Shown here in pieces: positions 3,753 through 36,829 of a stretch of 64,000 nucleotides of DNA. The notes below the pieces were generated by a model. That model did not search any database, was not told where the DNA came from, and was given only the letters and a program-made list of their open reading frames with translations. The DNA is from Alistipes sp. (GTDB lineage: Bacteria > Bacteroidota > Bacteroidia > Bacteroidales > Rikenellaceae), in NCBI GenBank assembly GCA_045633445.1, contig JAZQYI010000003.1, forward strand, positions 63,733 through 127,732. The letters are read 5' to 3'. Numbering within the stretch: the first letter of the stretch is position 1; the number at the start of each line of letters is the position of its first letter. The position numbers and the translations under genes are program-made.

Positions 3753-4265
3753 ATTTGTACACCGCGAATTCCTCACACCCATTTGTCGTCAAAAGGTAGT
3801 AGTTAATCCATCTTAAAGATGAATTTCCCTCCTCGCAGTTCGGCATAGTCTGCAAGCAGTCTCTGCCCTCACGAGCAGCGTCGGTCGGTGTGCATCGTGA
3901 AATATCCCCAGATGGGCTGTACTTGGGGTACTGCTCATTCGGGGATATGAGGGATGTGCTGCGAATTTGCACACCTATCAATCTTTGCACGCATTTGTTG
4001 TCAAAATGTGTTAGAGATGGCGCATCGCGTAAAAAGCCCAGCGATGGATAGTACTTGAACGTACAGCCATTGCTGGGCTTTTAGGGATGTGCTGCAAATT
4101 TGCACTCCGAATATTATTCGCACTCATTTGTCGTCAGAGTGGTGTAGTTACAACGCTCGGCGCGATTGGAGGCGATGGGCTGTACTAAGGCGTACTGCCC
4201 ATTGCTGACATATCGCGTTAGCGGAAGTAAATGCGCCACTATCACGACAAATGCACGGCAAATGT
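3753..4265 (+). repeat. Cluster 1 of the nested-palindrome element family (three leader + hairpin units in tandem)
   Basis: Leaders at about 3753, 3965 and 4098, each ending in CATTTGTYGTCARA. Hairpins at 3890-3959, 3992-4092 and 4125-4253 with GTAC-loop-GTAC apices. Extra right-end copy CACGGCAAATG at 4254-4264. Confidence 0.85.
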
Positions 4266-5288
4266 TTAGATGTTATGGGACAACGGCGGCGGCACCACCT
4301 CCCCAAACTCATAATCTCCCCAGCGCTCAGCGATGGAAGAGATGGTATCCTGCAGTTCATCGACATCGGTAAGGGTGACGAGTTTCATACGGGTCTGTTT
4401 GAAGTCGGGCAGTCCTTTGAAATAGTTGGAGAGATGGCGGCGCATCTCGAAGATTCCGACCTTATCGCCCTTAACCTCTACAGACTTTGCCAGGTGCTCC
4501 TTAGCGATAGCGATACGTTCAAGAACGGATGGTTGTGGAAGGAGTTCGCCCGTTTCGAGGTAGTGTCTCACCTCGCGGAAGATCCACGGACGACCGTATG
4601 TTGCGCGGCCAATCATCACGCCATCTACGCCATAGCGATCAAACATCTGCTTTGCCTTCTGTGCAGAGTCGACATCGCCATTTCCGATAATCGGGATGTG
4701 GATTGTAGGGTCGTTCTTAATCTTACCGATAAGTGTCCAGTCGGCCTCACCGGTATATAGCTGGCAGCGTGTACGACCGTGAATTGTAAGTGCCGCGATA
4801 CCAACATCCTGCAGACGGTGGGCAATCTCCTCGATATTTTTGCTTGTATCGTCCCAGCCCAAGCGAGTCTTAACGGTAACGGGTTTATTTACAGCATTTA
4901 CAATCTGGCGGGTCATCTCGACCATAAGCGGCACATCGCGCATCATACCAGAGCCCGCACCACGACCCGCGATTTTTTTCATCGGGCAGCCAAAATTGAT
5001 ATCGATAACATCCGGATTTGCACTCTCGGCTATACGTGCAGCCTCGACCATTGGCTCGATCTGATTGCCGTAGATTTGGATGCCTACGGGACGCTCAAAG
5101 TCGTTGATATTGAGCTTTGCCAACGATTTACGAGCATCACGAATAAGGCCATCGGAGGAGATAAACTCTGTAGTTACCATATCCGCACCAAATCGTTTAC
5201 ACATATAGCGAAACGACGGGTCGGTAACATCCTCCATAGGCGCCAAAAAGAGCGCACGATCACGCAACTCTACATCTCCAATCTTCAT
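4266..5288 (-). CDS. dusB: tRNA-dihydrouridine synthase B
   Basis: LAPMEDVT, IDINFGCP, VTVKTRLGW, TIHGRT, IIGNGD and GVMIGRA motifs. Confidence 0.95.
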   Translation of the reverse strand: MKIGDVELRDRALFLAPMEDVTDPSFRYMCKRFGADMVTTEFISSDGLIRDARKSLAKLNINDFERPVGIQIYGNQIEPMVEAARIAESANPDVIDINFGCPMKKIAGRGAGSGMMRDVPLMVEMTRQIVNAVNKPVTVKTRLGWDDTSKNIEEIAHRLQDVGIAALTIHGRTRCQLYTGEADWTLIGKIKNDPTIHIPIIGNGDVDSAQKAKQMFDRYGVDGVMIGRATYGRPWIFREVRHYLETGELLPQPSVLERIAIAKEHLAKSVEVKGDKVGIFEMRRHLSNYFKGLPDFKQTRMKLVTLTDVDELQDTISSIAERWGDYEFGEVVPPPLSHNI

Positions 5289-6184
5289 TAATCCCTCTTT
5301 TTATAGATTTGGTATGAATTTACGATATTTTGCCAAACAATATATGCCGTTGGGGCGACAGAGCAGAGTGGGTTGAGAAACGACTGCGCCATCCATATAG
5401 CCAGTATCGTATTCTTCTGACCCAACGACTGACCTCCGGCAACGGTATCGCCATACTTTGCACCGATCTTACGACCCAAAGCAAATTGAGCAAGGCATAT
5501 AACGGCCGAGATTGCTGCCAAGATAATCTCTGTCTTTGCATCTGTGGCGCTATGGTCAATGACAAAAGCTGTAGTACGACCCACGACAATAGTCAGCGAC
5601 ACGAGCCAAATATAGAACGAGAATTGGCTATGTCCTGCAACCCAACCTGCAACCTTTGGTGTTAAAAATCTGCACAGCTGACCCGCCACAAATGGCGCTA
5701 CGAGCAGAGGTGCAACTTTGCTTAGTATCTGCATCAGTGTACACTGTCCATCCCCTACCCAAGTGAGGATAAATGGCGCTACGAAGGCAGTGCCGATATT
5801 ACAGAGCAGGCTATAGGTGGTCATATTCTCGATATTTGCACCGAGCATACCACCAATAACCACAGCCGCCATAGCTATCGGCGCAAGTGCACATATCATC
5901 GCGCCCTGAGCCACCGTCTGTCCAAGTGGTAGCAGCAGTGTATAGAGGGCCATTGAGCCCACAATCTGAGCCGCAAAGAGCCAGAAGTGCATCATCGTCA
6001 CACGCATCTTTGTAACATCAACACGGCAGTATGTAAAGAACAGCATTACAAATATCAGCACGGGGGTAAGATAACCCGAGCTCCAGGTGTCGATAGCCAC
6101 AATCTGTCGGCACAGCAGCGCACCGATAACCATACCGAGGGGCATCGATACGGTGCGCAGTGTATGTGACGAAACTCTTCCCAT
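5288..6184 (-). CDS. Membrane transporter, bile acid:Na+ symporter-like
   Basis: 298 aa with 9-10 hydrophobic segments; APIAMAA and GQSLGQKNTILAIW motifs. Confidence 0.7.
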   Translation of the reverse strand: MGRVSSHTLRTVSMPLGMVIGALLCRQIVAIDTWSSGYLTPVLIFVMLFFTYCRVDVTKMRVTMMHFWLFAAQIVGSMALYTLLLPLGQTVAQGAMICALAPIAMAAVVIGGMLGANIENMTTYSLLCNIGTAFVAPFILTWVGDGQCTLMQILSKVAPLLVAPFVAGQLCRFLTPKVAGWVAGHSQFSFYIWLVSLTIVVGRTTAFVIDHSATDAKTEIILAAISAVICLAQFALGRKIGAKYGDTVAGGQSLGQKNTILAIWMAQSFLNPLCSVAPTAYIVWQNIVNSYQIYKKRD

Positions 6185-7791
6185 TACTCTATTCCATTAA
6201 AGAAGTATGGTGCATAGACAAAGCCCTGCTTATCATAGAGCTTACGCAGTATATGCATACGGCGGGCAAAGTCGTTGTAGTCCTTATTTCCATACGACCA
6301 ACCAGTCTCAGCAAGGGCAGCAAGGCGTGGCAGCAGCATATGCTGTGCGTGGTCGAAGGTAGCGATATACTCAGTCCACAGATTGACCTGAACACCCTTG
6401 ATGAACTTCTGCTGCTCTGAATTGAGCTCTGCATAAGGGTCGAGATTATAAGTCTTGTGCAGTGTCACTGGGAAGCGACCATTACCAAGCGGCTCGCCAT
6501 TTGCCTTATGGTCAGAGGTCTGGTAGTAGTCAATATAGCAGTGGGTATTTGGGGTCATAATAACGTGATTACCAAGCTTTGCCGCTGCAATACCACCCTT
6601 TGTTCCACGCCAAGACATAACAGTCGCGCTCTTTGAAATTCCGCCCTGCAAAATCTCATCCCAACCGATAATCTTTCGGCCACGCTCTGCAAGCCACTTC
6701 TCTATACGCTCCATAAAGTAGCTCTGAAGCTGGTGCTCATTCTCAAGTCCCTCATCCTTGATACGCTTCTGGCAGTGTGGACACTTTTTCCACGCATCAC
6801 GAGGAGCCTCATCGCCACCAATGTGGATATACTCGTATGGGAAGAGCTCAAGGACCTCAGTAAGTACATTCTCAATAAACTCAAATGTACTCTCCTTACC
6901 TGCGCAGTAAATATCCTTACTAATGCCCCAGCGTGTCCATACAGAGTATGGGCCACCAGTACAACCGAGCTCTGGATATGCAGTAAGCGCTGCTACAGAG
7001 TGTCCTGGCATCTCAATCTCAGGAATTACGTCAATATATCGCGCTGCAGCATAGGCAACAATCTCGCGCACCTGATCCTGGGTAAAGATACCGCCATAGC
7101 GAGTGCCGTCATAGACCTTTGAACGACGATTTCTACCGATAAGGGTCTGGTTACGGTATGCGCCTACCTCTGAGAGTTCTGGGTAGCGCTTAATCTCAAT
7201 TCTCCAACCCTGATCCTCTGTAAGGTGCCAGTGGAACTTATTTACCTTATGCAGAGCAAGGATGTCGATAAACTTTTTAACATCCTCAACCGTAAAGATA
7301 TGTCGGCATACGTCGAGCATACCTCCGCGATACTCAAAGTGTGGTTTATCGGCAATCTTAACGCCACCAAGCGACACACCTCCCTTAACTGCATCGGATG
7401 CAGCAGCAATCTGCAGCAGACTCTGCAGACCATAGAAAACTGCGCGCTCTGTACCGCCAACAATATTAACGGCAGCAGAGGTGATATTAAGTTTATACTC
7501 CTCTGCCTGTAGCGAACTATCTATAGTTAGGTTGATTGCGCCATTGCGAGGTGCAGAACGCTTTACAGACAGTGTTGAGCCGGTTACTACAGACAGATCC
7601 TCAGCAAAGATTGTCGCCGCATGGGCAAGCGCCTGCGACTCTGCTCGCACAACGGTCTTTGGGGTGAGAATAAAGCTACCCTCAACGGCTGTGTAGTTTA
7701 ATGGACGTGGCACAATGACATTTGCATAGTCAGTGGCAAAGGCAACCGACATACAGAGGAGTGCTACGGTGAATAAAAGTAGTCGTTTCAT
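6184..7791 (-). CDS. Beta-N-acetylhexosaminidase, GH20
   Basis: Signal peptide; RGGMLDVCRH, FHWHLTEDQGWR, IPEIEMPGH and the catalytic HIGGDE motif. Confidence 0.95.
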   Translation of the reverse strand: MKRLLLFTVALLCMSVAFATDYANVIVPRPLNYTAVEGSFILTPKTVVRAESQALAHAATIFAEDLSVVTGSTLSVKRSAPRNGAINLTIDSSLQAEEYKLNITSAAVNIVGGTERAVFYGLQSLLQIAAASDAVKGGVSLGGVKIADKPHFEYRGGMLDVCRHIFTVEDVKKFIDILALHKVNKFHWHLTEDQGWRIEIKRYPELSEVGAYRNQTLIGRNRRSKVYDGTRYGGIFTQDQVREIVAYAAARYIDVIPEIEMPGHSVAALTAYPELGCTGGPYSVWTRWGISKDIYCAGKESTFEFIENVLTEVLELFPYEYIHIGGDEAPRDAWKKCPHCQKRIKDEGLENEHQLQSYFMERIEKWLAERGRKIIGWDEILQGGISKSATVMSWRGTKGGIAAAKLGNHVIMTPNTHCYIDYYQTSDHKANGEPLGNGRFPVTLHKTYNLDPYAELNSEQQKFIKGVQVNLWTEYIATFDHAQHMLLPRLAALAETGWSYGNKDYNDFARRMHILRKLYDKQGFVYAPYFFNGIE

Positions 7792-7801
7792 AGTTTATAG
7801 G

Positions 7802-36546: not shown

Positions 36547-36559
36547 CAAAAAAAATTGC

Positions 36560-36590
36560 AAACGACAGAGTTATCTCTGTCGTTTTTTTG
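36560..36590 (+). terminator. Terminator after tRNA-Pro
   Basis: AAACGACAGAG-ttat-CTCTGTCGTTTTTTT. Confidence 0.88.
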
Positions 36591-36620
36591 TTTTAGATTC
36601 TAGCTATTGGCACTCACAAA

Positions 36621-36829
36621 TTGTACTCCGCTACCCTTTTGCACCCATTTTATCATCAGAGTTTGCACACCGCTAATTTCTTGCACTCATTTGTCGTCAG
36701 AGTGGGGCAGATACCACGCTCGGCACAAAAAACAGCAAAGGGCTGTACTTGCTCGTACTGCCCTTTGCTGTTTATTTGGGTTAGCGGAAGTAGATGCCCC
36801 GCTATCACGACAAATGTTTTACGACAAAA
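36621..36829 (+). repeat. Cluster 4 of the nested-palindrome element family (two leaders, type B element and extra right end)
   Basis: Leaders at 36621 and 36662; 129-bp element at 36688-36816 homologous to 4125-4253; second right end TTTTACGACAAAA abutting the stop at 36830. Confidence 0.9.

Follow-up and report, generated by a model that had tools for sequence, protein, structure and literature searches.

The Alistipes repeat examined here resembles several described systems, and equals none of them. ERIC sequences are, like it, high-copy imperfect palindromes of about 125–127 nt, which are intergenic near gene ends, are co-transcribed with their neighbours, carry internal indels in some copies and lack a transposase of their own. 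The Alistipes element is unlike ERIC in sequence and comes from another phylum; moreover, its orientation is fixed relative to the gene, 0–3 nt from the stop codon, the strand on which it stays paired is antisense to that gene, and its units form mosaics with other repeat modules. MITEs, such as the Correia elements of Neisseria, are also small non-autonomous repeats, they have terminal inverted repeats and can supply terminators or affect mRNA stability. In the Alistipes element, on the other hand, the hairpin makes up the entire unit, in place of a core framed by two terminal inverted repeats, no target-site duplication was found around the elements where it was looked for, and we know of no parent insertion sequence.

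The attC sites of integrons (57–141 nt) are likewise imperfect palindromes whose structure is more conserved than their sequence, in which the outer stem is conserved, the unpaired spacer is small, and the inner helices are variable and carry conserved unpaired bases; as with the Alistipes element, their place is at or across the upstream ORF's stop codon, the bottom strand relative to that ORF carries the functional fold, and they form head-to-tail arrays. However, the RYYYAAC/GTTRRRY core sites are absent from the Alistipes element, its copies are not in promoterless-cassette arrays, the genes beside them are housekeeping genes scattered over the chromosome, and no integron integrase was found among the window proteins and neighbours. 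Integrons are almost absent from Bacteroidetes (PMC9024848). REP/BIME elements are hairpin repeats described from the 3′ side of coding regions, with convergent or co-directional genes around them, where they plausibly act as RNA; like the Alistipes element, they occur in clusters and in mosaics with other motifs, with several families per genome, and are recognised, or proposed to be recognised, as a folded single strand, and some of their families (CGTC type) have no linked transposase (PMC3733652). REPs are 20–40 nt long, with 5–13-bp stems and an unpaired GTAG or CGTC tag (PMC3733652), whereas the Alistipes element has 125 nt and four helices. No RAYT/Y1 gene was seen near any copy, either among the window proteins or among the ORFs at other loci.

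In the window, which is the whole 64,000-nt stretch analysed here, this imperfect palindrome of ~125 nt occurs as five full and five partial copies; they form four clusters, and every copy is on the + strand. They belong to a non-autonomous repeat family that is present in high copy number in Alistipes-like Rikenellaceae and was detected in 29 Alistipes/Rikenellaceae species-representative assemblies from herbivore hindguts and also in metagenomes. The hairpin repeat of these gut bacteria is apparently undescribed; neither an Rfam family nor a publication on it was found. Each unit consists of a conserved 10-bp terminal stem (AATTTGTYGT/ACGACAAATT), a small internal loop, 2–3 variable helices with conserved wobble or mismatch modules between them, and an apex stem (NTAC/GTAN) beside a conserved mismatch. 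Several subtypes exist, with modules shuffled among them, and units are single or in head-to-tail arrays. Sequence conservation beyond pairing, seen in the apex TAC/GTA, in the fixed tandem wobbles and in the terminal stem, suggests a protein partner of the hairpin.

Scanned with a covariance model and no filters, the whole window gave no matches besides the copies described here, with the + strand ahead by about 16–75 bits each; all features below are on the + strand. In the first cluster, a leader of ~27 nt (3753–3779, repeat family D3) with two GCAC/ACAC-containing half repeats lies directly before the hairpin, and the GCAC(C) leader motif is also present upstream of hairpin copies in other genomes. 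Hairpin 1a (3780–3962; model match 3887–3975) combines, by its fold, an outer part of type A with a type B apex, lacks the outer 3′ arm, and includes an ~86-nt insert (3803–3888); metagenome contigs connect 3802 straight to 3889. It is followed by a leader of families D3 and D11 (3963–3991), by hairpin 1b (3992–4096), a type A unit with the outer 3′ arm absent (fold −46.3 vs −34.9 kcal/mol; model match 3992–4113, 27.5 bits), by another D3 leader recognised by sequence (4096–4124), and by the full type B hairpin 1c (4125–4253; 141.2 bits on the + strand vs 65.6 on the − strand; 51 pairs, 6 of them G·T). Between hairpin 1c and the stop of the Dus gene (4266–4268), an 11-nt duplicate of the 3′ terminus was identified (CACGGCAAATG, 4254–4264), and the orthologous locus L092 has a terminal remnant at the same place.

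The second cluster comprises a D3 leader (16556–16582), mini-hairpin 2a (16583–16618), which has the outer stem only, its interior being absent (fold −9.9 vs −5.0 kcal/mol), and the full type A hairpin 2b (16618–16744; 62.3 vs 45.8 bits), assigned also by fold. The terminal stem of hairpin 2b has covaried (TTTGGTGT/ACACCAAA), and the hairpin ends at the stop codon of gene 16744–19521, at a distance of −1. In the third cluster, unit 3a (23400–23472, family D9) is a 5′-truncated type B unit which, read on the − strand, gives an apex hairpin and then TCGTTGTTTT. Next to it are hairpin 3b (23472–23600; 27.6 vs 15.0 bits), a degenerate type A with 7 G·T pairs and several 1x1 mismatches, and the full type A hairpin 3c (23599–23725; 62.3 vs 46.5 bits), which ends at the stop (23724–23726) of a gene assigned to OAD-beta by Pfam OAD_beta. 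The fourth cluster has a leader identified by sequence (36618–36645), a stub of only the first ~16 nt of the hairpin (CATTTTATCATCAGAG, 36646–36661; by sequence, with a motif match at 36649), a second leader of families D3 and D5 (36662–36687), the full type B hairpin 4c (36688–36816; 140.7 vs 76 bits; fold −74.4 vs −69.8 kcal/mol), and a 13-nt 3′-terminus duplicate (TTTTACGACAAAA, 36817–36829) directly before the stop of gene 36830–37192. The truncated or partial units 1a, 1b, 2a, 3a and the stub had not been named in the sequence-only reading.

That reading had held that the fold is selected and specific to one strand, and the sequences it quoted were all recovered at their places. The arms of hairpin 1c (GCGATGGG/CCCATTGC and GTGGTGTA/TGCGCCAC) and of hairpin 4c (GCAAAGGG/CCCTTTGC and GTGGGGCA/TGCCCCGC) differ in sequence yet pair, the apex GTAC...GTAC is replaced by GTAG...CTAC in hairpin 3b, the minimum-energy fold of hairpin 3c contains 6 G·T pairs, among them the tandem TG/GT of 23628–23629 with 23695–23696, and tandem GG/TT wobbles are present in both type B copies (4159–4160 with 4218–4219, and 36722–36723 with 36781–36782). 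When the folding energies of both strands were compared, as it had proposed, the + strand was more stable in every copy. The five values (+/−) were −74.8/−55.7, −71.2/−56.0, −67.2/−49.3, −74.4/−69.8 and −44.3/−37.2 kcal/mol with RNA parameters, and −39.2/−29.8, −42.0/−34.2, −39.0/−30.2, −43.9/−38.6 and −19.8/−17.6 kcal/mol with DNA parameters, with which the + strand z-scores were −4 to −12.6.

In the larger alignments, 91.6% of the cells were paired in type A (31 copies; 32–50% in slid controls) and 96% in type B (20 copies), while 31 of 52 and 23 of 48 pairs, respectively, were changed on both sides, a level reached by 0 of 500 shuffles in either case. Compensatory changes were found in all helices, which bears out that the fold is under selection. 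G·T exceeded A·C by 437:48, in the alignments of the two types by 167:17 (type A) and 102:5 (type B), and, after removal of the majority-wobble columns, by 71:17 in type A (p = 5e-9) and 50:5 in type B (p = 2e-10); some pair columns cycle among C-G, U·G and U-A states. An independent sample of 91 metagenome copies, oriented by the apex alone, showed a more stable + fold in 82 vs 9 (p = 6e-15). As the + strand shows G·T in pairing intermediates and hardly ever A·C, the selection is indeed strand-specific. The hairpin fold is thus selected and belongs to one strand, and the compensating mutations that keep the pairing on one strand point to a single-stranded folded form, not to a double-stranded site.

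The units lie directly 3′ of a stop codon, that of the last gene of an operon, and the genes are ordinary ones. Of 73 clusters, 45 have a convergent gene whose stop codon (TAA 31, TAG 11, TGA 3) is −2 to +3 nt from the 3′ end of the hairpin; in 15 more the stop is 4–20 nt off and in 5 inside the element, together 65/73. In the independent sample, a stop was found 48–62 nt from the apex in 43 of 69 copies and on the 5′ side in 4. With the adjoining gene convergent, the folding strand is antisense to that gene. The orientation of the element follows the adjacent gene, not the replichore.

About 60% of the copies have an inner third, a GC-rich stem, flanked by A and T runs, and in this, as well as in filling the operon-end slot of canonical terminators, they resemble bidirectional intrinsic terminators. 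Of 92 copies, 58 have an A run and 52 a T run of four or more on the folding strand; the A run, source of the U tract in sense RNA, is the longer of the two in 36 copies, and the T run in 13. Unlike such terminators, the Alistipes stem runs ~35 bp past the A/T runs, its sequence is repeated genome-wide, several copies (e.g. 4125–4253) have no T run, and a simple terminator scan flags only the truncated unit 3a, the top terminator-like site on the − strand (23472–23447). A strong arm resembling a bidirectional terminator is frequent in the upstream modules. A TAnnTTTG promoter was not conserved upstream on the folding strand (10 matches in 75 regions, no positional peak). Hairpins were present in metatranscriptome contigs (public RNA runs, unstranded contigs), one of which connects a hairpin arm to the Dus gene, and the RNA depth over hairpins tracks DNA copy number, unlike that of an abundant sRNA.

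The element also behaves like a repeat and like a mobile element. DNA depth over the hairpins is 10–30 times that of the flanks, assemblies break there, and arrays, truncated units and stacked terminal remnants all occur. Orthologous genes elsewhere have ordinary intrinsic terminators in its slot, while orthologues at L076 and L095 bear the element at sites that in the window are taken by canonical terminators; the orthologous Dus site has another hairpin subtype and retains a 12-nt terminal remnant. A clean-junction pair of empty and filled sites was not found; the "empty" orthologous sites differ across the whole spacer. No transposase, recombinase or reverse transcriptase was found among the 48 window proteins, and no such enzyme recurs among 150 ORFs adjoining elements in other loci.

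A double-stranded DNA site, as the operator of a dimeric protein or as a sequence that forms a cruciform, could explain why terminal stem and apex are conserved in sequence and why a perfect palindrome, ACAAATTTGT, is created at head-to-tail junctions, but it is extremely improbable: the arms covary freely, no half-site sequence is kept, and a symmetric duplex predicts no strand-polar mismatches, so that the preference for a single-strand form in the sequence-only reading stands. The same reading had offered, as one option beside antisense RNAs, a lagging-strand ssDNA substrate oriented by replication; this option we regard as very improbable and largely refuted, with orientation going with the gene and the folding strand being the C-rich one. 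All four window clusters do share one orientation, as the model scan confirmed; this is because all four neighbouring genes are on the − strand. The folding strand has negative local GC skew in only 38 of 53 loci, a weak correlation, whereas the neighbouring gene predicts orientation far more tightly, and those of the 15 positive-skew loci that were checked still adjoin a convergent stop codon. At locus L111, two elements of opposite orientation, 236 nt apart, each stand beside their own gene. Moreover, the + strand of the window is C-rich, which by the usual reading of GC skew makes it the leading-strand template and not, as had been supposed, the lagging-strand template.

It is also rather unlikely that the hairpin functions only within the adjacent gene's mRNA, where it would terminate transcription or block 3′ exonuclease, with a non-functional polarity on the opposite strand that came from master copies or strand-biased mutation. 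The element does adjoin the stop codon at operon ends, in the slot of canonical terminators in orthologues, the A run is more often the longer one, 23447–23472 has the best sense-strand terminator score of the region, an RNA contig joins a hairpin arm to the Dus gene, and REPs likewise lie downstream of coding regions and plausibly act as RNA (PMC3733652). However, the sense RNA fold is weaker by 5–19 kcal/mol, and the polarity survives removal of the fixed wobbles and is seen in the cycling columns too. A mutational origin of the polarity is unlikely, since it opposes the local compositional skew, the folding strand being C-rich in the flanks, and since coding-strand deamination runs in the opposite direction. 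There remain transcripts antisense to the adjacent gene, where the hairpin could act as a bidirectional terminator/insulator at the stop, keeping convergent or spurious transcription out of the coding region, or possibly as a cis-antisense small RNA. This we hold to be conceivable, if somewhat doubtful. It agrees with the antisense polarity, the T runs on the folding strand, the terminator slot at operon ends and the hairpins in metatranscriptome contigs. Against it, a conserved Bacteroidetes-type promoter is absent upstream, the terminator-like arm of the upstream modules would block incoming transcription before the hairpin, many clusters have co-directional genes on either side, a setting in which antisense transcription should be slight, and RNA depth scales like DNA copy number.

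We tentatively favour, at somewhat less than an even chance, a REP/ERIC/attC-like non-autonomous repeat that is recognised as folded bottom-strand DNA and co-opted at operon ends. Several points speak against DNA: at most loci GC skew marks the folding strand as the leading-strand template, which is rarely single-stranded, the reading gives no account of how an enzyme places the element beside TAA, TAG and TGA alike, an excess of G·T over A·C is equally expected for RNA, and the ~10% wobble share and fixed 5′-UG/GU tandem are typical of RNA helices and structured RNAs. Enzyme genes, target-site duplication and a clean empty/filled pair are absent from the loci searched, and the hairpins do occur in RNA. 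DNA appears favoured over RNA by the missing conserved promoter and by the polarity also holding with DNA folding parameters. Furthermore, the inner-stem A/T runs would tend to end transcripts either way before the outer 3′ arm, leaving the outer helices unformed, yet these covary with equal polarity. Under the folded-DNA reading, the element would be recognised and propagated, or exchanged between sites, by a putative enzyme acting in trans on a single folded strand, the bottom one relative to the adjacent gene, by the same logic as integron attC sites or RAYT-bound REPs. Spread would continue only in lineages that keep the bottom strand foldable, from which the G·T polarity may have arisen, and the host would use the inserted hairpin as an operon 3′-end or terminator structure.

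The hairpin repeat was found at four intergenic sites of the window, cluster 1 (3753-4264), cluster 2 (16556-16744), cluster 3 (23400-23725) and cluster 4 (36618-36829), all in one orientation with the folding strand on the + strand. A covariance model (CM), made from 20 type B copies and run unfiltered across the whole window, identified five full units (4125-4253, 16618-16744, 23472-23598, 23599-23725 and 36688-36816), two weaker, truncated units (3887-3975 and 3992-4113) and a marginal truncated unit (23448-23471), all on the + strand; beyond these it gave only short terminator hairpins. 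For every unit the + strand score was above that of the - strand, e.g. 141.2 versus 65.6 bits. The units are 121-131 nt long with about 50 pairs, and their ends, in a pattern-selected 71-copy alignment, are (A)ATTTGTYGTCA and TCACGACAAAT(T). Partial pieces accompany them: leaders of ~27 nt with two GCAC-type half repeats each, recognised in the window clusters by sequence; a mini-hairpin in which the outer stem alone is kept (16583-16618, + strand, by fold and sequence); a 16-nt hairpin stub (36646-36661, + strand, by sequence); and 11-13-nt copies of the 3′ terminus that separate the last hairpin from the neighbour's stop codon (4254-4264 and 36817-36829). Tandem copies of the element 3′ terminus, 9-14 nt each, are stacked in the same position in five loci of other assemblies (L005, L029, L031, L083 and L114) as well as in the window; L031 has CGACAAAAT three times in tandem, and the units in L005 are TAATTTGTCGT, read on the gene strand. 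The first hairpin of cluster 1 holds an insert of ~86 nt (3803-3888). As contigs of three bovine-gut metagenomes join 3802 straight to 3889, this insert is polymorphic or peculiar to this copy.

The sequence-only reading had claimed that copies of different sequence keep their pairing, and the sequence pairs that it quoted were all found in place. Since a joint MAFFT alignment of all types misplaces the hairpin middle, alignments and formal counts were made per subtype. In type A (31 copies), 91.6% of the cells are in standard pairs and both sides change in 31 of the 52 pairs, and sliding the partner by 1-3 columns left pairing at only 32-50%. Type B (20 copies) has 96% of its cells paired, with both sides changing in 23/48 pairs. 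No shuffle out of 500 reached the observed values in either type, a test that overstates independence because the copies share descent. The terminal stem covaries too, as TTTGGTGT/ACACCAAA, TTTATTGT/ACAATAAA and CTTCTTGT/ACAAGAAG were identified in copies that the CM found free of the search pattern.

The same reading had pointed to G-T wobbles on the + strand as a sign of a single-strand-specific fold, and this was borne out. Six G·T pairs, one tandem among them, were identified in the copy at 23599-23725, and the tandem GG/TT wobble is present in both type B window copies. Over 92 elements among the matches listed, the CM pairs include 437 G·T versus 48 A·C (167:17 in type A and 102:5 in type B), with 71:17 and 50:5, respectively, when wobble-majority columns are left out; per-column sign tests gave 22:6 and 17:3 for G·T over A·C. 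Variable columns with C-G and U-A pairs pass through U·G, almost never through C·A. Orientation was taken from asymmetric sequence (GTCA... versus ...TCAC) and not from the wobbles. Metagenome contigs supplied an independent sample of 91 distinct hairpins, for which the asymmetric type A apex alone served for detection and orientation; 82 of them were more stable as the + fold and 9 as the opposite one (p = 6e-15), with 398 G·U pairs versus 154 on the other strand. The + strand was also the more stable in every window copy, with RNA and with DNA parameters; as both favour the same strand, they do not discriminate between the two molecules.

Stop codons were examined in 73 evaluable clusters, with convergent ORFs of at least 90 codons called mechanically. 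Among the matches listed, the last hairpin has its 3′ end -2 to +3 nt from the convergent stop in 45 of the 73; the stop is 4-20 nt off, mostly with terminal remnants between, in another 15, and within the element in 5. Because the 3′ end abuts a convergent stop, the folding strand is antisense to the preceding gene (65/73 clusters among the matches listed). The independent sample agrees, with a stop 48-62 nt from the apex (mode 53) in 43/69 hairpins and on the other side in 4/69. The abutted stops are TAA in 31 cases, TAG in 11 and TGA in 3, with a background of 210, 122 and 61 (among the matches listed), so the element is not one that just supplies TAA or seeks it out. In L111, two opposite elements 236 nt apart each follow a gene of their own. 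The shared orientation in the window had earlier been ascribed to the replichore, as lagging-strand DNA, and this part found no support: it is the adjacent gene that sets the orientation. The link to GC skew is much weaker and points to the leading-strand template, the skew of the folding strand being negative in 38 loci and positive in 15 among the matches listed, with skew over 8 kb as a rough proxy for replication direction.

The four neighbours in the window, Dus, a metallophosphoesterase, the beta subunit of a Na+-translocating decarboxylase and a DUF6385 protein, are all on the - strand and all last in their operons. The operon at 23724-27758 resembles that of a Na+-translocating methylmalonyl-CoA/oxaloacetate decarboxylase, with a glyoxalase-like epimerase candidate, carboxyltransferase, gamma chain, biotin carrier and beta subunit, and has a strong presence in rumen metatranscriptome contigs. 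The genes at 16744-19521 and 19527-23156 are tandem paralogues encoding large calcineurin-like metallophosphoesterases, with DNA blocks 71-86% identical, and the second has a fimbrillin-like N-terminal region.

Other repeat modules were identified near the hairpins. A second structured module at 16296-16410 folds into a cloverleaf-like four-way junction that has three arms and GGATTTAGGAT/ATCCTAAATCC as its outer stem, and the central arm (A-tract, GC-hairpin, T-tract) has the shape of a bidirectional terminator; this module, its arms covarying, is also found upstream of hairpins in L061, L088, L073, L082, L007, L093 and L114. A third module (16420-16560), which includes a hairpin, CCCCCTTTGGCAAAGGGGG, and a sequence block, GGCTACGCAGTAC, is common to L061, L090, L112 and L011, and its metagenome DNA depth is 5-15x that of its flanks. 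Runs with a 7-nt period (GCCAATA/GCTAATG/GCCAACG) are present at 30850-30898, 31020-31050, 48483-48517 and 36600-36612, at the 3′ ends of + strand genes, and those within 30850-31050 are inverted around another mosaic, GCGCTGCGATTAA...CCGAGGCGGAGCAG. Many Alistipes loci have these heptamer runs just upstream of hairpins.

Beyond the window, one genome per species was scanned with an exact pattern, a biased search since the pattern fixes the terminal stem; it matched at least 114 loci, with about 65 real copies among the matches listed and real copies in at least 29 assemblies. Among the matches listed, all real copies come from MAGs labelled 'Alistipes sp.', 'Rikenellaceae' or 'Bacteroidetes', from cattle, sheep, goat, yak and deer hindguts and similar samples, and the CM recognised 92 distinct elements in 62 listed loci and the window. 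The window genes share 79-84% DNA identity with loci of three element-bearing MAGs, which places the window in the same lineage. Several subtypes differ in the middle module (GGTGCATCG/GGATGTGCC, ACGCTCGGC/GTTAGCGG and others) and in the apex (GGGCTGTAC/GTACTGCCC, GGATAGTAC/GTACAGCC, GGGACATAC/GTATTTCCC and GGAGCATAC/GTATGTGAC), the two being found in varying combinations. In bovine-gut metagenomes, hairpin depth is 10-30x that of the flanks and contigs end at hairpins. For clusters 1 and 2, DNA metagenome contigs stop at the repeats and gave no clean empty site, only depth excess and chimeric joints, and an exact-protein look-up of the OAD-beta neighbour for empty-site strain variants had no match. 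Of 12 terminal-pattern matches in viral contigs, none fit the CM. At the gathering threshold of Rfam 15 two tRNAs alone match in the window, at E up to 1 nothing matches the hairpins within 3500-37000, and no published description of the hairpin family was found in the literature. The data show a structured, high-copy and patchily spread repeat whose fold is kept on one strand, which is set by the adjacent gene.

The nearest analogies are integron attC sites and the REP/RAYT system. The hairpin element is like attC an imperfect palindrome with structure kept over sequence and a fold on the bottom strand of the ORF, and the analogy extends to bottom-strand polarity and stop-codon position. However, attC sites carry the core sites R'' (RYYYAAC) and R' (GTTRRRY) at their ends, whereas the hairpin ends in the 71-copy alignment are without the GTT core and the element is without arrays of promoterless cassettes. 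Neither an integron integrase domain nor one of any transposase, recombinase or reverse transcriptase was found in the 48 window proteins, with Dus, OAD-beta and similar proteins as neighbours; 150 neighbouring ORFs from other loci showed no recurring recombinase, transposase or reverse-transcriptase family, and Pfam scans of both sets gave housekeeping families only. REPs are 20-40-nt palindromes with an unpaired GTAG or CGTC tag (PMC3733652). A unit of 121-131 nt is far from this size and is without such a tag, CGTC being present in TGTCGTCA but partly inside the terminal stem. The site preference is that of REP/BIME, past the end of coding regions, with the flanking genes convergent or co-directional. 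REP/BIME partners are RAYT (Y1 transposase-like) genes flanked by repeats, and no RAYT/Y1 domain was detected among the commonest families of the sampled neighbours (8-kb MAG pieces). ERICs, defined by consensus similarity and enterobacterial or Vibrio hosts, are presumably matched in size and shape, but the host here is Rikenellaceae. MITEs derived from DDE transposons have terminal inverted repeats and a target-site duplication; here, no such duplication was found, and the lengths of flanking direct repeats are distributed as in shuffled partners (0 nt in 59, 1 nt in 24 and 2 nt in 7; n=90). IS200/IS605 palindrome elements have top-strand subterminal hairpins, insert 3′ of a fixed tetra- or pentanucleotide and are oriented with the lagging-strand template, whereas the whole unit here is one hairpin, flanked by a stop codon of any type, with a mostly C-rich folding strand. 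The element fails the defining tests of attC (core sites, integrase, cassettes), REP (size, tag) and DDE-type MITEs (duplication).

As for what the folded strand does, it may act as folded bottom-strand DNA recognised in a REP- or attC-like way, a joint reading that we hold tentatively, at somewhat less than even chances. Conservation of sequence at the apex and the ends suggests a protein partner. Less likely, the folding strand would act as an RNA. Metatranscriptome contigs, which are unstranded, hold hairpins at about the copy-number excess, and one runs from a hairpin 3′ arm through into Dus; they are compatible with co-transcription of hairpin and gene. On the folding strand, the upstream TAnnTTTG promoter motif showed neither conservation nor positional enrichment, and a sigma-70 scan is uninformative for Bacteroidota. 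A 54-nt block ending in AAAAAAGTTTGCA, with copies 76% identical upstream of tRNA-Pro (36376-36429) and tRNA-Lys (56161-56214), is probably a shared Bacteroidetes-type promoter region. Among the matches listed, runs of at least 4 flank the GC-rich inner stem, of A (the sense U tract) in 58/92 copies and of T in 52/92. Since this terminator-like core would stop transcripts in both directions before the outer 3′ arm, while the outer helices show the same covariation and polarity, and since no conserved promoter was found on the folding strand, we infer that DNA is a likelier folded form than RNA.

A purely sense-mRNA role, with a non-functional polarity, is improbable, and more so than an RNA of the folding strand. 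The sense U tract is the longer run in 36 copies and the shorter in 13 (among the matches listed), and a simple terminator scan over 20 kb gave the truncated unit at 23447-23472 as the top terminator-like site on the gene strand and the only hairpin flagged. In L076 and L095 the element is at the stop of orthologues of the window genes 56565-59444 and 59538-60281, which in the window have ordinary GC hairpins and T tracts 16 and 25 nt downstream; Dus has a hairpin in both the window and L092, of differing subtypes, with a 12-nt terminal remnant beside its stop common to both. A mutational origin of the polarity is unlikely because local composition points the opposite way: folding-strand flanks are C-rich and loops A-rich, and mutation bias was rejected as the main cause. 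Coding-strand deamination would yield a polarity opposite to that seen.

Metagenome assemblies of these bacteria break at the repeats, which would also mislead a search for small RNAs or terminators and could act as strain markers. Stop-codon abutment combined with bottom-strand polarity is otherwise the defining mark of integron cassettes, largely missing from Bacteroidota, and this makes the family a clean natural test case for site choice and for DNA versus RNA action. If it were only a REP/ERIC-like passenger, it would still be a new family with unusually clear covariation. A more specific and rather improbable idea is that Bacteroidota have an unrecognised system, specific for single strands and with a non-integron enzyme, that uses the hairpins as attC-like sites of recombination or insertion; it would place, exchange and pile up mobile terminator hairpins exactly at the stop codons of ordinary chromosomal genes. 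If the main reading holds, Alistipes genomes of herbivore guts would hold tens to perhaps hundreds of copies, the element would take the place of ordinary terminators at operon ends, and evolution would be constrained there on the strand opposite the gene.
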